A DNA stretch of 14,773 nucleotides from Gammaproteobacteria bacterium (GTDB lineage: Bacteria; Pseudomonadota; Gammaproteobacteria; GCA-001735895). The stretch covers positions 1 to 14,773 of the forward strand of contig JBNKUM010000074.1 in assembly GCA_050298595.1 (NCBI GenBank), given 5' to 3'. The notes beneath the pieces were generated by a model, which did no database searches, had not been told where the DNA came from, and saw nothing but the letters and a program-made list of their open reading frames with translations. Both the position numbers and the translations under genes were made by a program. Positions 1 to 14,773 of this stretch are shown here, in pieces (position 1 is the first letter of the stretch; every line of letters begins with the position of its first letter).

Positions 1-875
1 CAGTGATAGAGATTGGTGCGGCAGCTACACTAAAGCTCACAGTGCTGGTTGTGCCTGCCACAACATTATTGGCATCTTTAACCGAGAACACGACATTCGC
101 TGCTGTGTAGGTGGCAGTAGGTGTTCCTGTCACTTCTCCAGAGCTGGGGTTAAGGCTCAATCCCGCTGGCAGGGTGCCTGATGTGATGCTGAAGGTATAA
201 GGTGTTACGCCACCACTGGGGGTCAAGGGCGAAAAGCTGGTCATCGCCGTGCCAACAGTCAGGTTCTGTGCAGTGGTGGTTGCCGTGGCAGAAATCGAGA
301 CGGGTGCCGCTGCTACGCTAAAGCTCACGCTACTGGTTGTGCTTGCTGCAATATTGTTGGCATCTTTCACTGAGAAGACAACATTCGCTGTTGTATAGGT
401 AGCCGTAGGTGTTCCTGCCACCTCACCAGTGCTGGGGTTAAGGCTCAATCCCGCTGGCAGTGTACCTGATGTAATGCTGAAGGTATAAGGTGTTACACCG
501 CCACTGGGCGCCAGGGGCGAGAAGCGGGTCATCACCGTACCAACTGTCAGATTCTGTGCGGTGGTAGTTGCCGTGGCAGTAATCGCGACGGCTGCTGCAG
601 CTACGCTAAAGCTCACTGTGCTAGTTGTACCTGCCACAACATTGTTGGCATCTTTCACCGAGAAAACGACATTCGCTGTAGCATATGGAGCGGTTGGCAT
701 CCCATCCACTACTCCGGTACTGGTATTAAAGTTTAATCCTGCAGGTAATGTGCCCGAATAGCTGTAGGTATAAGGCGTTACGCCATCGCTGGGCGTCAGG
801 GGCGAGAAGCCAGTCATCGCCGTGCCAACCGTGAGGTTCTGTGCCGTAGTGTTGGCTGTTGCAGAGATTGCGACA
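1..875 (-). repeat. Intragenic tandem repeat, 288-bp (96-aa) period, at least 3 copies
   Basis: GGCATCTTT recurs at 71, 359 and 647 (288-bp spacing) with high flanking identity; the N-terminal copy is one codon shorter and more diverged. Confidence 0.92.
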
Positions 876-1003
876 CTTCCAGACGAACCGCCTGTACCGT
901 CCGACGAGGTGTTACTCGAAGTAGAACCACCGCAGCCTGCCAACAATAATGTGGTCGATAGCATACTTACAAAGAGCACACCAAATAAACTAAAACGTCT
1001 CAT
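1..1003 (-). CDS. Lipoprotein with tandem putative Ig (He_PIG-like) domains; 5' part only, runs off the left edge
   Basis: Manual translation from ATG at 1003: MRRFSLFGVLFVSMLSTTLLLAGC (lipobox LAGC, Cys24), Gly/Ser linker, then repeats of 'TAQNLTVGTAMT.FSPL.PSGGVTPYTFSITSGTLPAGLSLNPSTGEV.GTPTA.Y..ANVVFSVKDANN'. No stop before base 1, so it is absent from the ORF track. LPAGL..N..TG...GTP is typical of He_PIG domains. Confidence 0.9.
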   Translation of the reverse strand, partial: MRRFSLFGVLFVSMLSTTLLLAGCGGSTSSNTSSDGTGGSSGSVAISATANTTAQNLTVGTAMTGFSPLTPSDGVTPYTYSYSGTLPAGLNFNTSTGVVDGMPTAPYATANVVFSVKDANNVVAGTTSTVSFSVAAAAVAITATATTTAQNLTVGTVMTRFSPLAPSGGVTPYTFSITSGTLPAGLSLNPSTGEVAGTPTATYTTANVVFSVKDANNIAASTTSSVSFSVAAAPVSISATATTTAQNLTVGTAMTSFSPLTPSGGVTPYTFSITSGTLPAGLSLNPSSGEVTGTPTATYTAANVVFSVKDANNVVAGTTSTVSFSVAAAPISIT

Positions 1004-2752: not shown

Positions 2753-3119
2753 CTGCCTGCCGATTTTTTTTAGATGGCAAATCCAGTAATCTCATTGAAT
2801 CAACCGGGATCGGTTTTCCGACTCTAAATGAAATTTCCTGATTCTGTTTATTAAAAACATATCCATCACCAGCATCAGCGTACCCAGCGGGGATATTGTC
2901 ACGGTCCCGATTAGAGAGGCTATATTTGAAATCAAAATGATTCAGCACCACATCCAGAAACTCAAAGCCCTCCAGATGCTTAAGGGTATCGATAAACAGA
3001 TTGATCTCATCCTGATGCAAATCTTTTTTAATATTGCTACTGCGGTTTTATACAGACATTTCTTTTTGTTTCTAAAAATCTGGCAAGAAATTATCCAGCA
3101 TTGCTTCGACATTGATCAT
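2745..3119 (-). pseudogene. Disrupted N-terminal part of the OlsF-like acyltransferase (copy 1)
   Basis: ATG at 3119 gives MINVEAMLDNFLPDF* then LHQDEINLFID...EGFEFLD.VLNHFDF...DRDNIPA, which jumps directly to GTLMLV...ISFRVGKPIP: most of the PlsC-like domain is deleted at about 2887, with stops and frameshifts. Confidence 0.75.
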
Positions 3120-3184
3120 GTCAGTCACTCATTGATTTATTTAAAAAAAACTCAAGCCTATTGGGAGATTATTTCAGTTTGATA
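2887..3184. repeat. ~300-bp direct repeat, copy 1 (copy 2 at 4570-4865)
   Basis: GCGGGGATATTGTCACGGTCCCGATTAGAGAGGC...CAGTTTGATA occurs twice with 1683-bp offset and scattered substitutions. Confidence 0.95.
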
Positions 3185-3548
3185 AAATTGGTGTTTTTAC
3201 CTTTAACTGGACGAGGTGTCGAGTTTTAATCTATGCACCCTGAGGGGGGGGAACTTTCAACAATAAGCGATATATATCGTGACAAGGTCAAGTATTGCAG
3301 TGACACAGCCACAGGAGAGTGTAAACAGTTGCACAACAGCGACTAAAAAATTTCAACGGCAGCTTTCAAGACCAGTCATTAAAATATATCTGGTGAACAG
3401 GTGCTATCGACCTTTGTCGTCAATCAATATTTTTCAATCGATTCTTTTGATTTTGTCAGTTTTTTTGAATTTCATGTTGTGCAGAGAATACTGTCAAAAC
3501 AAGATTTGTTGCAAACCGCCTGGCCAACCTGCTTTTGAAAAGTTGTTT

Positions 3549-3586: not shown

Positions 3587-4135
3587 TTATCCGCGGTCGG
3601 GGAGTATCCGGGTCAGCGTATTGTCATGCTTGATGTAGTGATGATAGACCCCAGCTACCGCATGCAGACCGATGAGGTAATAGCCCGCAGTACCGACGAA
3701 CTCATGCAGTTCCTTGATCTGACCTGCAAGATCTTTGTTTTTGCCGATCAGTGCCGGTAATTCCAGACCGAAGAATGGAATTGGTTTCCCTGCTGCGCTG
3801 AGTAACAGCCAACCGGTTATCGGCATGCCTATCATCAGCACATACAATGCCAGATGCAGCAGATTGGAAGATATTTCCTGGCTGCGCGGCAAAGCTGGCT
3901 GGATTAGCGGGGTTGGACCAGAAAAACGCGCCGCCAGGCGCAACCAGACAAAACCGAACGTCAGCAAGCCTAGCATGAAATGCCAGGTTTTTAACTCCTC
4001 GCGTGGATCGCTGCCTTTGGGGAATAGCTCCCGCAAATTAATGCTGGCATATACCGCGATGAAAAGTATCAGCATAAGCCAGTGGATACTGATGGATAAA
4101 GATCCATAACGAAGTGTGGTGTTTTTCCAGCTCAT
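3587..4135 (-). CDS. Cytochrome b561 (CybB/YodB/YceJ family di-heme membrane cytochrome)
   Basis: 182 aa, four hydrophobic segments, conserved histidines in IHW, WHFMLG, LHEFVG and LHAVAG, plus LLHLALY...P.TGW and YHHYIKHD.TL.RILP; AAGGAG RBS upstream. Confidence 0.93.
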   Translation of the reverse strand: MSWKNTTLRYGSLSISIHWLMLILFIAVYASINLRELFPKGSDPREELKTWHFMLGLLTFGFVWLRLAARFSGPTPLIQPALPRSQEISSNLLHLALYVLMIGMPITGWLLLSAAGKPIPFFGLELPALIGKNKDLAGQIKELHEFVGTAGYYLIGLHAVAGVYHHYIKHDNTLTRILPDRG

Positions 4136-4410
4136 TGACTATCTCCTTTAAAAAGTATAATTGAACGTATATTTTGGGTATTTTTGACGAAGGTTTCTGT
4201 ACGCTACCGCGCATAGAATGGAAATTGCAACCACATTTAACTACTCGGTATCTTCCGATAAGAAGTCACCGCTCAACATGAACCTTGCATTGTAATTTAA
4301 GAAAAAGAAGAATAAAAGATACATTTCTGGCAAACCAATCACTCATTTTACAGTAGCGGTGCATTCACCCTTAATGAGCCAAACAAAAAGTCTTCCAGTT
4401 GTATATAGGT

Positions 4411-4484
4411 TTTCTAAGATACTGTGCGGCAGTGAACTGTAGACCCACGCTCCCTCTTGAACTATATAATTTCCAAGCTGCCTG
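4411..4484 (-). CRISPR. Type I-F CRISPR remnant: partial repeat, 32-bp spacer, degenerate repeat
   Basis: 4411-4437 TTTCTAAGATACTGTGCGGCAGTGAAC (two substitutions and one deletion versus the copy at 9421); exactly 32 bp TGTAGACCCACGCTCCCTCTTGAACTATATAA (4438-4469); 4470-4484 TTTCCAAGCTGCCTG (14/15 match, truncated). Confidence 0.8.
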
Positions 4485-4532
4485 ACACTATAACAAAACG
4501 GATCTAATTAATCCTCGTCCTGAGCAACGAAG

Positions 4533-4802
4533 GCCTGGGCGAATAGCTACAATAATCACACGACCCTGCGCGGGGATATTGTCACGGTCCCGATTAGAGA
4601 GGCTATATTTGAAATCAAAATAATCCATCACCGCACCCAGAAACTCAAAGCCCTCCAGATGCTTATGGGTATCGATAAACAGATTGATCTCATCCTGATG
4701 CAAATCTTTTTTAATATCGCTACTGCGGTTTTATACAGACATTTCTTTTTGTTTCTAAAAATCTGGCAAGAAATTATCCAGCATTGCTTCGACATTGATC
4801 AT
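4533..4802 (-). pseudogene. Second 5' fragment of the OlsF-like acyltransferase (copy 2)
   Basis: Same N-terminus and same early stops as copy 1, but continues DNIPAQGRVIIVAIRP (a decayed IVANHP acyltransferase motif) and then ends. Confidence 0.75.
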
Positions 4803-4865
4803 GTCAGTCACACATTTATTTATATAAACGACTCAAGCTTATTGGGGGATTATTACAGTTTGATA
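4570..4865. repeat. ~300-bp direct repeat, copy 2
   Basis: Matches 2887-3184. Confidence 0.95.
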
Positions 4866-5445
4866 CAATAAGCGATGATATTGATACAGTCTGGGCTGGT
4901 AACCCCGGAGGACTTGCGCAGCTGGAAAAAAGTTGAGTGGAACTGTTCTTCGGTACCGTGCTGTTTTAAACTAATCAACCAACCTGACCCCTATTAAATA
5001 TTTTGAATCGCTTTTACAATTTTGATTAACCCCCTTGTGATCAAGAACATTAATTATGCGATACCTACTGACTCACTGGTCGAGTAATCAGGACTAAAAT
5101 TAATGACAGTAAATAATTCGTTTTTTAATAAGTATTTTTTAACCCTAAAACGGATTTAGAAATTATAACTGATCGATTAACATATAAGGCGTTTCAAAGT
5201 ACTCGACCAAACGATGAAGCTCCAGGACGGACTAATGGTATGACTATTACTGCAGTTGATTTATTACGTTATTTCAGCAGTGAACCTTTCTCGGGATCTT
5301 TTGAGGGTCAAACGAACAGATTGACCGGGATATATACGGCTCCATAAATTTACCAATAGTTGCGATAACTCAGAGATCTCGTGATGGATATATCACGGAA
5401 GTCCTGTTGTAGTAAGAATATATATAATAGTAGAGGATACAGGTT

Positions 5446-8400
5446 ATGTTCATTCGAAGTTCTCATTACCAGGTGCAGCGCATATTTTTATTGCTACTGG
5501 CTGTTCTACTGCTATCCAGCTGCGGTGTCAGTGATAGCATCAGTGATACTGATGATAATCCATCAAACAGCAATCCTCCTATACAGAGCGATGAAATCAT
5601 AGAGCTTAAGGCCAGAGCGGGTACCATAATCGAAACCACTACCGGAATGTTGATTCAACTCGACGGTTCCAGTTCCAGTATTGCCTCATCAAGTCCATCC
5701 TTCGATCCTAACAGTGTTACACTGAGTTACCACTGGTTACTGAACTATCGCCCTGATACAAGTCAGGCGTCATTGATGAATGCCGAATCGGCAACACCCA
5801 GTTTCATAGCTGATGTTGGAGGCACTTATATTTTTCAACTTAATGTGAGTGCATTAGGCGAAACCAGTAAGCGTGATCTGGTGACTGTGATTGTTAAAGG
5901 TGAAACAAATAATTTTATCTTCCCTCATGCGGGCCTGACTTCCAACTGTTCAAATTGTCACAATGGGGTAACCGAGTGGGTACCAGGCGGTAGCAAGGTG
6001 ATGGGGAAATCGCCAAACCACATGGCGGTCAGTATGGAATGTGCGGCCTGTCATACAACATTTGGGTTCGATGAAATACTACGGGTCGATCACCAGGAAG
6101 TCTTTGGCTCCTGCAGTGAATGTCATAACGGGGTGATAGCAATCGGTAAATCGGATTCTCACCCGATCACCAGTGCCGAGTGTGATAACTGTCATACCAC
6201 CACCAGCTTCCTGACCCTGAATCCAGACGGCAGCTTTGATCACGCTGGCATCACACACGATTGCCAGAGTTGCCATAACGGCAGCACTGCAACCGGTCCC
6301 GATAACTCGGTGTTTATCCATGAAGCTGGCGCCGATTGCAGTAACTGTCACAACACGATCACCTTCAGCGGCACTCACCCTGACCATACCAGTACCGAGA
6401 TCACCAGTCAGCGCTGTGATGCCTGTCATGGCGTCACCGCTACAGGTCCGATCAGTGGTCATCCCGGCATCAACCCTGCCCTGGATTGCAACGCCTGCCA
6501 TACTATAACCAGCTTCAGTATGGGTGGGGTTTATAACCATAGCTCGGTGGACGCCTCGATACAGTCCTGCGATTCCTGCCACAACGAGAGTACCTCGATT
6601 AATGCAGTAGTTAAGCCAGCAAGTCACATTATAACCAGCTCAGATTGCGGTAATTGCCATACCACAGTCGGCTTTTTGCCCGCCTATGTCGATCACAGTG
6701 GCAGCGACGTTGTTGGGCATACCTGTGTCAGTTGTCATGACGGCAACAACATCGGTGTGACCGGCAAGTCGGCCAACCATCTACCTACCGGAGAGGACTG
6801 TGTGGTGTGTCATTCCCCCGGCACCTTCACTACGGGTAAGTTCACACATGCAGCCAGTTACCTCGATACGCTCCACTGCGCTGCCTGTCACGATGATATG
6901 ATCACTATCGGCAAGGGCGTTAACCACCTGCCCACTATACAAGACTGTGGCGTCTGCCATAACACCAGCGCCTTCACCCCTACATCGTTCAACCATGTAG
7001 GCATAGATACCAGCAACTGTGCGCAGTGCCATAACGGCAGCATCAGTACCGGCCTGCCCCGCAATCATGTGCCGACCTCTGATCAGGACTGCTCGGCATG
7101 CCATAGTGGCTATGACACCTTTACTGGTGCGCTATACAACCACCAGGGCATAGACCCCAGCAACTGTGCTATGTGTCATGACAACGGCATCGCCCCTGCT
7201 AAACCGGTCAACCATATCCCGGCGCTCGGCGAATGTAGCCAGTGCCACGACTCCACCGCGACATTCAAGTCAACGACCTTCCGTAACACAGTGCACCAGA
7301 ACCTGACCCAGGGCTGCGAAGGCTGCCATGTGAAAGCCTTCCTACCAGCCGTAGTGGAAGTGAAAAGCGCCAGCCACCTGCCCACCGCACAGGATTGCTA
7401 TGTGTGCCATACGGTGACAGCCTTCACCCCATCGATCTTTGCACATAAAGGTATCGCTAATAACTGTGTGGCCTGTCATGACGGTAATGCCGATCATATT
7501 GCTGCGGGCGCCATCGGCGCAACCCGTTCAGCGATCCACCAAAATACCAGCGAAGACTGTGGCATCTGTCACAACACAACGCGATTCGCCAACGCCTTTG
7601 TAAACCATAGCGGTCCGACCGTGACTGCCAATCGATGTGATACCTGTCATAATGGAAGTGATGCGATCGGCAAAAGTGCAAAGACCAATCCACCGCATAT
7701 CACTACCACACAAGACTGTAAGGTCTGTCATACCAGTGGGGGATCCTTTAAACAAGCCTCCTTCTCGCATAACGGTATCACGAGTAATTGTGCCAGCTGT
7801 CACAACGGCAGTCAGGCGCAGGGTAAATCAAATACTCATCTGGCGACCTCAAAGGACTGTTCGGTGTGTCATAACACCGATGGATTTGCGGGTGCGAAGT
7901 ATGACCATAGCGGGATCAAGGATAACTGCTCCTCCTGCCATGGCGCTGGCTTTGCAGTGGGTAAACCCAGCGACCATGTACCAACCAATCAAGATTGTCA
8001 TTTATGTCATCAGACTACGGGCTTTTTGCCAGCAAAGTTTGATCATAAAGGGATAGTGGATAACTGCTCCTCATGCCATGGCGCTGGTTTTGCAGTGGAT
8101 AAACCTAATGGGCATGTGGCGACCAATCAAGATTGCGGGGTCTGCCATAATACGACAACTTTTAAAGGTGCGACCTTCGACCATACCGGTATTGTTGATA
8201 ATTGCGATTCCTGTCATAACGGTAGTACGGCCAAAGGCAAGAACAATACGCATATACAGACAAATCTAGATTGTCATTTCTGCCACACCACTGCTACCTT
8301 TGTTGGCGGTAGCTGGAATCATCAGGGTATCACGAATAACTGTACATCCTGCCATGATGGAAGACTGGCGTCGACGCATTCGTCATGGCACTTCATCACT

Positions 8401-8736
8401 ACGCAGGATTGTAATGTCTGCCATGTAACCAGTGGCTGGGCACCAACCAGATATTCGCATCAGGCATATGGAGGCTATCCAGGTGATCATGCCAAAAATC
8501 TAGGCTGTCAGTCCTGTCATCAGCAGAATAATGAAAAGATTAGCTACAGATACTCTAACTATGCTGGATATTGTGCTGGTTGTCATGCGGGTGATTACAA
8601 GCCCGGAGAAGATGAGCATCACGGGTTAAGTAGAGATAAGGATTGTGGACGATGCCATCGAGTCAACAGTCGTGAATGGGATGGGGATGATGATCACGAT
8701 GATCACGATGATCACGATGACGATGATGACGATTAA
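5446..8736 (+). CDS. Giant multiheme c-type cytochrome lipoprotein (37 CxxCH) with N-terminal PKD/Ig-like domain
   Basis: AGAGGA RBS; signal peptide with lipobox LSSC (Cys26); PKD-like segment (LDGSSS...LSYHW...SATPSF.AD..GTY.FQL.V); 37 CxxCH motifs counted by hand in residues 168-1071, nearly all preceded by an extra His; D/H-rich tail. Confidence 0.96.
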   Translation: MFIRSSHYQVQRIFLLLLAVLLLSSCGVSDSISDTDDNPSNSNPPIQSDEIIELKARAGTIIETTTGMLIQLDGSSSSIASSSPSFDPNSVTLSYHWLLNYRPDTSQASLMNAESATPSFIADVGGTYIFQLNVSALGETSKRDLVTVIVKGETNNFIFPHAGLTSNCSNCHNGVTEWVPGGSKVMGKSPNHMAVSMECAACHTTFGFDEILRVDHQEVFGSCSECHNGVIAIGKSDSHPITSAECDNCHTTTSFLTLNPDGSFDHAGITHDCQSCHNGSTATGPDNSVFIHEAGADCSNCHNTITFSGTHPDHTSTEITSQRCDACHGVTATGPISGHPGINPALDCNACHTITSFSMGGVYNHSSVDASIQSCDSCHNESTSINAVVKPASHIITSSDCGNCHTTVGFLPAYVDHSGSDVVGHTCVSCHDGNNIGVTGKSANHLPTGEDCVVCHSPGTFTTGKFTHAASYLDTLHCAACHDDMITIGKGVNHLPTIQDCGVCHNTSAFTPTSFNHVGIDTSNCAQCHNGSISTGLPRNHVPTSDQDCSACHSGYDTFTGALYNHQGIDPSNCAMCHDNGIAPAKPVNHIPALGECSQCHDSTATFKSTTFRNTVHQNLTQGCEGCHVKAFLPAVVEVKSASHLPTAQDCYVCHTVTAFTPSIFAHKGIANNCVACHDGNADHIAAGAIGATRSAIHQNTSEDCGICHNTTRFANAFVNHSGPTVTANRCDTCHNGSDAIGKSAKTNPPHITTTQDCKVCHTSGGSFKQASFSHNGITSNCASCHNGSQAQGKSNTHLATSKDCSVCHNTDGFAGAKYDHSGIKDNCSSCHGAGFAVGKPSDHVPTNQDCHLCHQTTGFLPAKFDHKGIVDNCSSCHGAGFAVDKPNGHVATNQDCGVCHNTTTFKGATFDHTGIVDNCDSCHNGSTAKGKNNTHIQTNLDCHFCHTTATFVGGSWNHQGITNNCTSCHDGRLASTHSSWHFITTQDCNVCHVTSGWAPTRYSHQAYGGYPGDHAKNLGCQSCHQQNNEKISYRYSNYAGYCAGCHAGDYKPGEDEHHGLSRDKDCGRCHRVNSREWDGDDDHDDHDDHDDDDDD
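8689..8715 (+). repeat. (GATGATCAC)x3 microsatellite encoding DDH repeats in the cytochrome tail
   Basis: Directly visible; the C-terminus reads DGDDDHDDHDDHDDDDDD. Confidence 0.9.
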
Positions 8737-8990
8737 TAACTACTGCGTGAATCCCATAATTATATACTCAAGTTTCGGAGTTCAAATTAAGCCTTTAAAA
8801 AGAGTCTAAGCATTTGATTTAAATAATAAGATTAGCCTTACACATGGTAAAATGTTTGTGTTTAAATCCAGACAATAAAACCATCCGTTGGCACCATTGA
8901 ACGCACCCTGCTACGTCGCCTACAAGGATAATGGTGAGGGGCGTGAGCAGAATGCGGGAAGCTTTGTCGCTCTTATTAAGGGAATAGCCA

Positions 8991-9095
8991 TTAATGGCGA
9001 ACGACTCTCAGACCATTGCGGCAGGATTCGTAGTAGTCTCGCGCTGCTTTGATGCCCTGTTCCGCCTCCTTACGGATTGTAAGAGTGTACTTCAT
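8991..9095 (-). pseudogene. Truncated ParE/RelE-family toxin
   Basis: MKYTLTIRKEAEQGIKAARDYYESCRNGL... resembles ParE-type N-termini (EAE.DI..A..YY....GL); start overlaps the antitoxin stop (ATGA); ends after 34 aa. Confidence 0.7.
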
Positions 9096-9292
9096 TCGGC
9101 CACTATTCTGAGCTTCACCGATTCCCTGTCATCGCCGATATCCCCATCAATCTCAAATTGCGTCAATCGCCTGTCCAGTTAGAGACGATGTGACTCCGAC
9201 AACTCGTCATTACCTGCTTCGGCTTGAACACTCACCCATAGCTCTGCTGCGAGCAGGATTTTTTCGCTAGCAGTCAGATTTTGAATATTCAT
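9092..9292 (-). pseudogene. Addiction-module antitoxin (TIGR02574-like) with an internal stop
   Basis: MNIQNLTASEKILLAAELWVSV...LSESHRL*LDRRL...ESVKLRI matches the L...E...L...LW.S...LDRR....VK.R pattern; TAA at 9179-9181. Confidence 0.75.
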
Positions 9293-9420
9293 AACTTACT
9301 CCAAATTTGTCTGGAATTTACTATCTGGCTGCAGATTCATTTGATAATTAACCTGTAAACCATATACGCCTTCATACATTCAGACAACTCATTACACAGT
9401 CATTGAAGCGTGGCCTGCGT

Positions 9421-9448
9421 TTTCTAAGCTGCCTGTGCGGCAGTGAAC
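9421..9448 (-). CRISPR. Solitary intact type I-F CRISPR repeat
   Basis: Minus strand GTTCACTGCCGCACAGGCAGCTTAGAAA: canonical 28-nt I-F repeat with CTGCC/GGCAG stem and 8-nt CTTAGAAA handle. No cas genes in the window. Confidence 0.88.
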
Positions 9449-9474
9449 TTGATTTTAATTTAAATAGGGAAGCG

Positions 9475-9497
9475 TCCCCTTTTATCAAAAAAGGGGA
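9475..9497. repeat. Short palindrome TCCCCTTTT-ATCAA-AAAAGGGGA
   Basis: 9-bp perfect stem with 5-nt loop; REP-like or terminator-like. Confidence 0.5.
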
Positions 9498-9709
9498 TTT
9501 TAGTGGACGACTCTCTTCCATTTTTATTGCTCACGTTTTGTTCTCATTCAACTTTAGTCAGTCGAATGCAAGAGATTGCAAGCTTTTGTTCCAATATCCT
9601 GGAAAATTGAGTTAATATTACAGCGCCGGTCAACGCAGTAGACAGTTTGGAATTGATATAACTCACTGAAATATATTAAATAAACTAACCTTACCAGCCT
9701 ATCTGATTG

Positions 9710-9893
9710 GGATAATGTTTTGAGTATATGACGCAAGTTGAGTCTTTTTCACAAGCCTAAACTCTGAGAAACCCGATCCATGTTCTTCTTAAACCACTGA
9801 TTTAAAGGGAAATGAAATGAAAGAACAGGAAATAAGCCGTAATTTACCCTTGCATGATATGACTCAACTTGAGGCAGATTCCTACTGTTATGC
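9710..9893 (+). other. Degenerate or expanded attC-like junction with an internal inverted repeat; its R' box GTTATGC starts cassette 1
   Basis: GTTATGC (9887-9893) is the exact complement of GCATAAC (10281-10287). Inverted repeat CAAGTTGAGTC (9734-9744) / GACTCAACTTG (9861-9871). Only a weak R''-like GGATAAT at 9710. Confidence 0.5.
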
Positions 9894-9908
9894 ATTAAAA
9901 GGATCACT

Positions 9909-12658: not shown

Positions 12659-12664
12659 AAATCT

Positions 12665-13139
12665 GCATAATCGGGTAACCGGGGGTCTCTAACCCCCAGC
12701 CCCCACAACACCCTGCATGTGGGTCCGCACACGACTGCATCATTTACAGTGGCCGTTAAATCACATGGCTTCGTCGTCTTGGACCCAAAGCGCTTCGCGG
12801 GGCCGGCACTGCCAACTCGCCTTCAGCCTACGCCTAATATGATGTTCTTGTTCATCAGCTCGCAGTTTTGCTAGCGGCTTGACCGCCATGGATGGTGGAA
12901 ATGCAGGTTTTGCAGGAGCATAAACCTGTCCTTCAGACTTTTCCTCACGGATCAGCCCTTGCCATTCGCTAGTAGTTATCATCTAATAACAGTATAAGCT
13001 GCTAAGGATGGTGACCTTCCTACAGAGGACTTTCACCTCATTAGTTAATGCCCATGTCGGGCGTACACAAGGCCATTAAATTCGCTCCCTACGGTCACCG
13101 GACGGTCGCAAGCTCGCGTCGTTTATGGCAGCGTTATGG
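12665..13139 (+). other. attC site split by a group II intron
   Basis: Removing 12670-13066 restores GCATAACAAGGCCATTAAA...TTTATGGCAGCGTTATGG, with L boxes GCCATTAAA/TTTATGGC and R' GTTATGG at 13133-13139. Confidence 0.88.
12670..13066 (-). mobile_element. ORF-less, internally deleted group IIC-attC intron (397 nt)
   Basis: Minus strand 5' end GTACGCCCGACATGGGC..GAGGTGAAAGTCCTC; 3' end with degenerate domain V (12705-12738) and domain VI GGGGGTTAGAGACCCCCGGTTACCCGAT; exon junction TTGT|intron|T in the attC bottom strand. Confidence 0.88.
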
Positions 13140-13630: not shown

Positions 13631-13698
13631 TCGGGATAGAGAGCTACTCAAGTACCCCCTCCCACAGCACCGTACATACGGGTCCGTATACGGCGCCT
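13630..13698 (-). mobile_element. 3' end (domains V-VI) of a second, different group IIC intron inserted in the R'' box of cassette 4
   Basis: Minus strand AGGCGCCGTATACGGACCCGTATGTACGGTGCTGTGGGAGGGGGTACTTGAGTAGCTCTCTATCCCGAT|TATGG; CGC triad as in class IIC. Confidence 0.88.
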
Positions 13699-13723
13699 GA
13701 CCAGGTCCGTGCTTATACGCTTA

Positions 13724-14663
13724 TACCGGGTTGGACCTAAGTAACCCATTGATTCTATGGACTTATTCCCCATATAACCCTATGATTTATCCCTTAAAGG
13801 GCCCATTTAACAGGGAAAAAACAAACTTTAAGGAAAAAGACCATGCCCCGAGCTAATCGATATTTTCAACCGGGATATATTTGGCACATAACACACCGCT
13901 GCCACAAAAAAGAATTCTTACTAGAATTTTCCAGGGACCGTGAGCGTTGTATCTCATGGTTATTCGAGGCCAGGAAACGCTATGGCTTGTGTGTATTAAA
14001 CTATGTGGTCACCTCTAACCACATCCATCTACTGGTAAAAGATACTGGAAAAAATGTCATCGCTAAAAGTCTGCAGTTAATAGTTGGACGTACGGCTCAG
14101 GAATATAACCAGCGTAAACAACGCAAAGGAGCATTTTGGGAAGATCGTTATCACGCCACGGCAGTCGCGTCGGACGAGCACTTTATTAAATGCCTGGTTT
14201 ATATAGACCTCAACATGGTCAGAGCGGGTGTTGTAGAACACCCTGCAATATGGCCTCACGGTGGTTATCAGGAAATCCAGCAGACACCAAAGCGCTATAG
14301 AATCATAGATACCTCAAGCTTAATGGAAATAGTTGGGATTCAGGATATCGAGACTTTGCAACAACAGCATTTGCAATGGCTGAACAATGAGCTCCTAAAC
14401 CTGAATGCTGAAAAAGATATCAACTGGAGTGAAAGCCTGGCGGTAGGCAGTGAATCCTTTGTTGATGAAGTACGTGCCTTGCTTGGGTATAAGGCCAGAA
14501 AAAGAAAAAATGCAGCCATTGATGAAAAGCATGTGCTTCGTGAAACGCCAGAACTTTACAGGGTTGATTTTGATAGTGAAATGGGCGGTTTAAGCCTGAA
14601 TAATCAACTTTTCTGGGATAAAATATTAGTATAAACAATAGCTTACTTAGGTCCGACCCGGTA
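13724..14663 (+). mobile_element. 940-bp element: HUH transposase bounded by 21-bp terminal inverted repeats
   Basis: TACCGGGTTGGACCTAAGTAA (13724-13744) and TTACTTAGGTCCGACCCGGTA (14643-14663), 20/21 complementary. Confidence 0.85.
13843..14634 (+). CDS. Y1 HUH transposase, RAYT-like (IS200-like fold)
   Basis: MPR start, WHITHR, HUH motif in NHIHLL, FWEDRYH, YIDLNMVRAG (catalytic Tyr region); AAGGA RBS. Confidence 0.92.
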   Translation: MPRANRYFQPGYIWHITHRCHKKEFLLEFSRDRERCISWLFEARKRYGLCVLNYVVTSNHIHLLVKDTGKNVIAKSLQLIVGRTAQEYNQRKQRKGAFWEDRYHATAVASDEHFIKCLVYIDLNMVRAGVVEHPAIWPHGGYQEIQQTPKRYRIIDTSSLMEIVGIQDIETLQQQHLQWLNNELLNLNAEKDINWSESLAVGSESFVDEVRALLGYKARKRKNAAIDEKHVLRETPELYRVDFDSEMGGLSLNNQLFWDKILV

Positions 14664-14773
14664 GTCGGTTTAGGCTTGAAATCCCTTATGATCTAGGCTT
14701 TCTAACAGCAAAATGAACGTTATACTGTTTTCTATTCATGTCAGGTATTCTGTATTTTATCAAGTTTGTAGAT

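Follow-up and report, generated by a model that had tools for sequence, protein, structure and literature searches.

A predicted lipid-anchored cytochrome with 37 heme sites and its association with PCC3 clusters in Gammaproteobacteria

We have analyzed a contig of 14,773 bp from a draft gammaproteobacterial genome (assembly GCA_050298595.1, contig JBNKUM010000074.1; 5.49 Mb in 119 contigs, 45% G+C). The entire contig, C74 in our numbering, is called the window in what follows. The open reading frame (ORF) at 5446-8736 (+) is open throughout, and its product of 1096 amino acids, which we call the window protein or P0001, is predicted to be a functional, conserved, lipid-anchored cytochrome with 37 hemes. 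Judged by its sequence, it is a variant of the giant cytochromes of porin-cytochrome clusters of the PCC3 type, a family predicted from genomes; the variant is distinguished by a lipobox and a PKD-like domain. As to its function, we lean towards a heme wire or electron buffer, anchored in the outer membrane, which works in trans with PCC3.

The protein and its family

The window protein contains 37 CxxCH motifs. From residue 168 to residue 1071 there are 904 amino acids, 24.4 per heme, and the value over the whole protein is 29.6. The motifs are 22-32 residues apart, mostly 23-27, and the variants CX3CH, CX4CH and CxxCK are absent from the protein. Between residues 168 and 989 two motifs, A and B, alternate in 17 pairs of sites, and sites 1021, 1043 and 1067 are of a different type. 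A six-frame scan of the genome gives only 24 stop-to-stop frames with at least four CxxCH, and only three of these have more than 21, so that an array of 37 is far beyond chance. Pfam recognizes it as Cytochrome_C7 (PF14522, E = 9.6e-48, in 15 stretches), and Cytochrom_c3_2 is matched too. An earlier reading of this DNA, here called the original prediction, had described 37 CxxCH at about one per 24 amino acids and two alternating motifs. Both descriptions agree with the translation.

The array is strongly conserved. In an alignment of 114 sequences, none of the 37 sites is missing from more than one sequence. Outside the motifs, 36 His residues each occur in 90% or more of the sequences, and another, H566, in 86%; there is no conserved Met. 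A conserved His precedes the heme site by 6-10 residues in 35 of the 37 cases, as had been noticed for almost every heme; such a His is lacking at site 1043, and there are two of them at site 1021. With one conserved spare His per heme, 37 in all, bis-His ligation is likely throughout, and the claim of bis-His hemes may be kept at that strength. We infer that the 37 sites are occupied by heme.

At the N-terminus, MFIRSSHYQVQRIFLLLLAVLLLSSC, the elements of a lipoprotein signal are found within residues 1-26: a positive n-region, a hydrophobic, Leu-rich core, and a lipobox (L-S-S-C, which fits the pattern [LVI][ASTVI][GAS]C) ending at C26. Of the 114 relatives, 90% or more share this Cys, with the consensus AGCGG. 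A tether and a PKD-like domain follow. The latter matches Pfam family PF22352 (residues 83-150, 28.9 bits against a cut-off of 27). AlphaFold2 predicts it with a predicted local distance difference test score (pLDDT) above 90 across approximately residues 50-150, and PKD domains are the top Foldseek matches for the model. In the 114-sequence alignment W97, P103, S106, F120, D123, G126 and Y128 are invariant. The PKD-like spacer of the original prediction is therefore found by Pfam, AlphaFold2 and Foldseek. The description as a lipid-anchored, heme-dense cytochrome also holds, given the lipobox and the number of amino acids per heme.

The window protein differs from its relatives at the C-terminal end. 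Its last heme site is canonical, while in 112 of the 114 relatives the Cys of this site are 3-6 residues apart (CX4CH in 68, CX6CH in 39). Most relatives therefore count only 36 CxxCH, the last site being atypical. The site at residue 427 is also variable: 30 of the 114 sequences have CX3CH or CX4CH there, and the window protein has the canonical motif. In nearly all relatives the chain stops 7-9 residues past the final heme His; it ends on F or W, to which a single D or G may be added. The window protein continues with an acidic, His-rich tail, DGDDDHDDHDDHDDDDDD, which is present in only one of the 114 aligned sequences, the window protein itself, and is identical in the near-identical proteins P0002 and P0127. 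One of these two, with 98.5% identity, has 16 substitutions outside the tail, none of which affects the Cys or His of a heme motif or any of the distal His. The contigs of public runs break or are mis-joined in the repeat which codes for the tail, with loose contig ends at 8689-8729; one of them "goes back 45" with extra letters. The length of the tail may vary between strains, or this repeat may be hard to assemble.

The AlphaFold2 models do not contain heme. The full-length model, based on the 114-sequence alignment, has a mean pLDDT of 59.1 and a predicted template modelling score (pTM) of 0.35. Only its PKD domain is confident, and a Foldseek search against the PDB finds PKD and Ig domains only. 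The model of residues 318-642, based on 45 orthologs, has a mean pLDDT of 55.7. With this low-confidence model Foldseek gives no match at E <= 0.001; the best one is the Geobacter protein GSU1996 (3ov0, E = 1.6).

The protein belongs to a large family. In a word-indexed protein search, 978 of the 8000 candidates that were scored reached E <= 0.001. Almost all of the top 120 of these 978 are 1050-1130 amino acids long, with 43-54% identity and 94-98% query coverage. An exhaustive search of cluster representatives gave 6463 matches at E <= 0.001 and 579 at E <= 1e-30, with giants of up to 3949 amino acids. When one genome per species was scanned, 559 stretches were confirmed by tblastn and 73 loci were kept. 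These are mostly from Gammaproteobacteria (Thiodiazotropha, Sedimenticolaceae, Thiotrichaceae, Ectothiorhodospiraceae and Pseudomonadales bins), and a few carry the labels Nitrospirota, Myxococcota or Spirochaetaceae. A named species, Kaarinaea lacus, also has an ortholog (P0057, WP_455222965.1). Full-length orthologs, defined by 35-38 CxxCH and 1030-1200 amino acids, number 45, the window protein included. In a FastTree tree of these 45 proteins, the window protein is on a long branch (0.71, median 0.23), the second longest of the end branches.

The high novelty given to this protein in the original prediction was overrated, since it is one of hundreds of co-linear orthologs. Close identity to a characterized protein would also have removed its novelty: no such close relative turned up in the searches. 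In the literature on 35, 36 or 37 hemes, no title or abstract among the part of the matches considered points to the subfamily with lipobox and PKD domain. Searches which combine multiheme, PKD domain, lipoprotein and extracellular electron found nothing, nor did those which join Thiodiazotropha with multiheme, and PCC3 is not mentioned in PMC13741234 or PMC11748539.

The window gene is present in contigs of four DNA runs, and no RNA run is listed as carrying it. Fragments which are 90-99% alike are found in two further studies, of sediment and salt-marsh metagenomes, where they cover 19 and 24 of 30 bins; the gaps are uninformative.

The features of the gene and its neighbors are collected in Table 1. 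There is no porin, periplasmic cytochrome or ccm gene within the window, as the original prediction had stated. It had also placed the gene amid pseudogenes, and for this we find no support. The neighboring ORFs are intact, with Pfam families. The flanks of the gene (4136-5445, 1.3 kb, and 8737-9908, 1.2 kb) contain short frames only and have 38-44% G+C, against approximately 53% in the gene. Compared by blastx with the ORFs of the same genome and the neighbor ORFs of the 73 loci, they show only the 302-bp direct repeat described below and nothing like a pseudogene in this set, and three flank ORFs have no Pfam match. A sigma-70-like site is found at 5321-5350; such sites are no commoner than in shuffled sequence. 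The cytochrome b561 gene, located 1.3 kb upstream, does not recur among the neighbors of the relatives. It lies between the copies of a 302-bp direct repeat (2887-3188 and 4570-4869, 94% identical), which may have been left behind by a small insertion or duplication. Short multi-copy repeats at 12659-13135, 13631-13842, 13843-14634 and 14672-14773 are also found in contigs C18, C56, C9, C75, C53, C23, C100 and C57. They adjoin the transposase gene, and a repeat forms the end of the contig.

Table 1. Features of the window gene, followed by the neighboring genes in their order.
Feature	Residues	Position (strand)	Basis or remarks
Shine-Dalgarno-like AGAGGA		5433..5438 (+)	Sequence reading; 7 nt upstream of ATG
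Signal peptide and lipobox L-S-S-C26	1-26	5446..5523 (+)	Translation; AlphaFold2 helix 2-23
Ser/Asp/Asn/Pro-rich tether	27-50	5524..5595 (+)	Translation; pLDDT <50 for residues 25-47
PKD-like (K319L-type) Ig domain	about 51-151	5596..5898 (+)	Pfam, AlphaFold2, Foldseek
Heme array	161-1071	5926..8658 (+)	17 alternating di-heme units and a 3-heme C-terminal part
Last heme site, canonical CGRCH		8644..8658 (+)	Alignment
Conserved family C-terminus RVNSREW		8659..8679 (+)	Tails of 114 sequences
Lineage-specific acidic and His-rich tail	18 residues	8680..8733 (+)	Coded by GAT/GAC/CAC repeats
He_PIG Ig-repeat lipoprotein		2-1003 (-)	Cut by contig end; three near-identical repeats of about 95 amino acids
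GNAT-type acetyltransferase			
Cytochrome b561 family gene		3587-4135 (-)	
ORF of 125 amino acids			No assignment
PhzF-family protein			
Beta-lactamase-family protein			
DUF2846 lipoprotein			
IS200-like Y1 transposase			

PCC3 in this genome and in other carriers

According to excerpts of He, Barco, Emerson & Roden (2017, PMC5566968), a PCC3 cluster consists of a porin, a periplasmic cytochrome of about 21 hemes and an inner-membrane protein of about 300 amino acids, found together. Contig C62 of our genome contains a block of this type, with an inner-membrane protein of 263 amino acids, two cytochromes with 21 and 13 hemes and a porin of 705 amino acids. An iron-sulfur flavoprotein and an ankyrin/Sel1 protein are divergent from this block. 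In contig C8 there are eight adjacent ORFs for ccmABCEFGHI, which match the Pfam families ABC_tran, CcmB, Cytochrom_C_asm, CcmE, CcmF_C, Redoxin, CcmH, and TPR_CcmH_CycH with Ig_CycH. A host with no cytochrome c maturation system would have spoken against the original prediction, and this system is present. The genome also has two GspD secretins above the curated cut-off. DsrA and SoxB are above theirs as well, and the host is therefore, by its predicted genes, a sulfur oxidizer of the Dsr/Sox type. The gene had been called stand-alone. This is correct for its locus, where there is no partner gene in the window, but not for the genome, which has PCC3 in C62, the ccm genes and the two GspD.

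Two paralogs are found in the same genome, one with 38 CxxCH (contig C5, 9387-12929, L076) and one with 76 (contig C91, 19029-25334, L077). Both have a lipobox, and each has one additional CX3CH. The PKD-like Pfam match is below the cut-off in the first (20.4 against 27 bits) and absent in the second. In the larger paralog the entire 37-heme array is doubled in tandem: the first half of the protein shares 45% identity with all of P0001, and the second half 58% with residues 183-1072. Relatives with 66-80 sites are also found in other genomes (L001, L003, L004, L009, L014, L039 and L047).

We have looked for neighbors up to 10 kb from the gene in the 45 loci with full-length orthologs. A PCC3 porin is found upstream in 9 of them, and any part of PCC3, or its flavoprotein or ankyrin partner, in 11. 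A small CcmI/CycH-like protein (PF23892) is next door in 11 loci and a CcmG-like redoxin is found in 7, while 25 loci have no neighbor of any of these types. There is no neighbor common to all loci; the commonest non-cytochrome neighbor family is found in 13 of 74. Where linkage exists, the 37-heme gene is an extra fifth gene behind the porin, in addition to the second cytochrome of the cluster. For example, the order in L061 is inner-membrane protein, 21-heme cytochrome, 9-heme cytochrome, porin, the protein with 35 CxxCH, and the CcmI-like protein. The loci linked to a porin are scattered on the tree of 45 proteins, with 8 changes for 9 loci.

The CcmI/CycH-like neighbors have 270-320 amino acids, with TPR and Ig_CycH domains (for example L061:13511-14335, L064:13586-14437 and L002:8193-9152). 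Strong homologs of the L061-type protein are present in only 8 of the 45 carrier genomes, always next door. Across the 45 loci, this neighbor does not track the type of the last heme motif. We have also looked for a private CcmI-like gene in our own genome, where the housekeeping CcmI is the only one found.

A PCC3-type porin is present elsewhere in the genome in 31 of the 35 other carriers whose ortholog has no linked porin, and with the genome of the window it is found in 41 of the 45 carriers. In an evenly drawn sample of the class, a porin is present in 40 of 301 genomes. This sample includes 24 genomes with a match to P0001 at E <= 1e-50, and 23 of them also have the porin.

Possible roles

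The role which we slightly favor, an outer-membrane-anchored wire or buffer working in trans with PCC3, may be described as follows. A flexible tether and the PKD-like domain would be followed by one chain of 37 bis-His c-type hemes, which the general Ccm system of contig C8 would attach in the periplasm. The Lol system would sort the lipoprotein to the outer membrane, as suggested by the lack of Asp at position +2. There it would act in trans with the conduit of contig C62, which is encoded separately. Its most likely role would be that of a surface accessory similar to MtrC/OmcA, extending the conduit to minerals, partner cells and other extracellular donors or acceptors, and it could buffer up to 37 electrons. 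By analogy with MtrCAB, the periplasm and the porin would be occupied by the cluster cytochromes, with the lipoprotein as the surface partner. The exposure at the surface, the contact with PCC3 and the direction of electron flow are likewise proposals. As to dimensions, MtrA has 10 hemes in about 8 nm and GSU1996 has 12 hemes in about 12 nm; scaled from these proteins, a linear chain of 37 hemes would be roughly 30 nm long.

In favor of this role are the conservation of the heme sites, the distal His and the lipobox, the homology of the repeats to cluster cytochromes, the linkage and co-occurrence with PCC3, and the presence of PCC3, Ccm, GspD, DsrA and SoxB in the genome. The remote match to 6r2q and the published descriptions of PCC3 cytochromes may be added. 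Several observations weigh against it. Surface exposure has no direct support: what bears on it are the lipobox, the PKD-like domain and the presence of GspD, and the lipid anchor fits a protein which faces the periplasm equally well. Neither PCC3 nor a maturation gene is found nearby in 25 of the 45 loci, that of the window among them, and where 5 kb or more are available on each side, as in 22 loci, 13 have no listed neighbor. A full-length ortholog is present in only about 3-4 of the 40 porin-bearing genomes of the class sample; PCC3 therefore does not need the 37-heme protein, which would be an accessory rather than a core part. The carrier genomes are related to each other, so that their counts are not independent, and the figures given above describe an association rather than a test of it. 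In fact one carrier, G324 (the genome of L071), is nearly the same organism as that of the window. Both AlphaFold2 models are too poor in the heme array to bear on the rod of stacked hemes in the original prediction. Finally, PCC3 itself is called "functionally unverified" in excerpts of a 2025 paper (PMC12442390). We may add that G324 has two porins (C159:5266-7380 and C21:31433-33547), one of them 100% identical to that of our genome and the other 78%; it is the same or a very close organism, possibly mixed with a relative.

The alternative which survives best, and which we consider rather unlikely, is an electron store or distributor in the periplasm, held at the inner face of the outer membrane. 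The protein would lie along the membrane or across the periplasm and would buffer or relay electrons between PCC3 and periplasmic redox enzymes, either of sulfur oxidation or of respiration. By default, the lipoproteins which Lol sorts in Gammaproteobacteria are oriented towards the periplasm, and a predicted Dsr/Sox sulfur oxidizer would be a suitable host. The number of hemes is fixed at 37 in the 114 relatives, against 7-69 in the cytochromes of PCC3 clusters, which fits a fixed dimension or stoichiometry, and the idea of a capacitor has been raised for PCC3 cytochromes in excerpts of PMC10734462. On the other hand, the periplasm would usually be too narrow for a linear chain of about 30 nm, a periplasmic cytochrome with 21 hemes is already part of PCC3, and the Foldseek matches of the PKD-like domain are extracellular domains. 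PKD-type Ig domains are typical of surface and extracellular proteins, which also counts against a periplasmic store.

A role independent of PCC3 seems quite improbable. The protein would be a self-sufficient reductase or oxidase, or an electron sink (for example for soluble metals, humics, polysulfide or reactive oxygen), at the surface or in the periplasm, fed by small soluble cytochromes. The 25 loci without any partner nearby are consistent with it, as are the 4 of 45 carrier genomes which showed no porin, and the acidic, His-rich tail could bind metal cations. Nevertheless, these four genomes are metagenome bins of unstated completeness. The presence of the porin in 41 of 45 carriers, against 40 of 301 genomes in the class sample, argues for a connection with PCC3, and so does the linkage, seen in 9 of 45 loci from scattered places in the tree.

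It is hardly credible that this gene, as one of three giant paralogs and in a region rich in repeats, is decaying or has fallen silent: the end branch is long, the 18-residue tail alters the family C-terminus, the last motif is unlike that of 112 of the 114 relatives, and the contig has repeats and an IS200-like gene, but the 3.3-kb frame is fully open and has a Shine-Dalgarno-like site, all heme sites and distal His are intact both here and in the 98.5%-identical relative, and near-identical fragments are found in the runs of two further studies.

The action in trans with PCC3, which we prefer, may be extended in a more speculative way, unlikely to be right as a whole. The 37-heme proteins with lipobox and PKD domain could be fixed-length "plug-in" heme cables which dock in trans on PCC3. 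The atypical last site (CX4CH/CX6CH) and the terminal F/W would be a maturation or docking signal, read by the private CcmI-like and CcmG-like neighbors. In the lineage of the window it would have been replaced by a CxxCH and an acidic, His-rich tail able to bind metal cations or mineral surfaces.

In summary, few predicted parts of bacterial extracellular electron transfer are as widespread as giant single-chain heme wires. The subfamily described here is easily recognized by its lipobox, its PKD-like domain and exactly 37 heme sites. It is found in hundreds of species, mostly uncultured Gammaproteobacteria, including symbionts and sulfur oxidizers of sediments, and nearly always together with PCC3. 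The co-occurrence counts, the two N-terminal classes (with or without a lipobox, see below), the fixed 37 sites, the atypical last site with an aromatic end, the replacement of both in the lineage of the window and the clade-restricted CcmI/CcmG-like neighbors are new. If the protein is indeed the surface end of the PCC3 conduit, it would let sulfur oxidizers reach about 30 nm out, to minerals or partner cells, and would give them a buffer of 37 electrons. The fixed length and the private CcmI-like neighbors are concrete handles for experiments. For the window itself, what we gain is mainly that the gene is correctly annotated and the stand-alone claim put right.

Comparison with known systems

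The Geobacter "nanowire" cytochrome of the c7 type, GSU1996 (3ov0), resembles the window protein in its concatenated small modules, similar to c7/c3, with about 25 amino acids per heme. The c7-type triheme domain TIGR04257 is found in two stretches of the window protein (63 bits, above the cut-off of 40), a similarity which applies at the domain level only. The unit is triheme in GSU1996 and di-heme in the window protein. GSU1996 has only 12 hemes, some of them with His-Met ligands, while the distal ligands of the window protein are apparently all His, with no conserved Met. GSU1996 is not known to have a lipid anchor.

The similarity to the Shewanella proteins MtrC, OmcA and MtrA (6r2q, 4lm8) is remote. 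When the family profile was compared with solved structures, the best match was chain A of 6r2q (E = 1.2e-11), which we take to be MtrA; it is labelled otherwise in the table of matches. Next come the heme domains of the MtrC, MtrF and OmcA families, with E about 1e-9 for domain II of MtrC. The Pfam family of MtrC/MtrF domains II/IV (PF22113) gives 62 bits. MtrC and OmcA carry a lipoprotein anchor and have chains of bis-His hemes, a type of ligation which is likely in the window protein. On the other hand, these proteins and MtrA have 10 hemes, compared with 37 in a single chain here, and the split beta-barrel flavin-binding domains of MtrC/OmcA are lacking in the window protein. Its scores are well below the cut-offs of both decaheme families: 81.9 against 209.3 bits for OmcA/MtrC (TIGR03507), and 106.4 bits, in 8 stretches, against 192.2 for DmsE/MtrA (TIGR03508).

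The closest likeness is to the giant cytochromes of PCC3 clusters. The excerpts of He et al. (2017, PMC5566968) describe them as rich in T, S, A and G, with heme-bearing repeats, medians of 34 and 21 heme sites and up to 63 of them, while those of Hoover et al. (2023, PMC10734462) give 10-35 hemes and AlphaFold models which are long and for the most part linear. The "extracellular" cytochromes of these clusters share with the window protein a very large number of CxxCH, few amino acids per heme, heme-bearing repeats and the composition (114 S, 104 T, 97 G and 82 A among 1096 residues). There is also homology between repeats. Those of the window protein are 30-40% identical, over approximately 100-225 amino acids, to the small cytochrome ahead of the porin in L061. 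Its C-terminal 330 amino acids or so are 37-55% identical, over approximately 170-345 amino acids, to cytochrome-like frames elsewhere, and many of these frames are beside a PCC3 porin on the same contig (G212, G176, G044 and G294, for example). The likeness to PCC3 cytochromes which had been proposed is thus supported by repeat homology, composition and heme density.

The differences from these cytochromes are equally clear. The window protein is not encoded in a cluster, at least within the 14.8 kb of the window. We have examined 16 cytochromes of the cluster type, most of them within or beside PCC3 blocks in the fetched loci (L078-L083, L062, L067-L069, L072, L073, L007, L042, L043 and L046). 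They have a plain signal peptide directly followed by the motif F-D-H-x-x-T-G-F-x-L-x-G-x-H, and no lipobox, while the lipobox type never has this motif. The 13-heme cluster cytochrome of our own genome has a degenerate F-D-H motif, ERFDHDETHFSLDIVH. Heme number is variable in the cluster type (7-69), while it is fixed at 37 sites in the type with lipobox and PKD domain, to which the window protein belongs.

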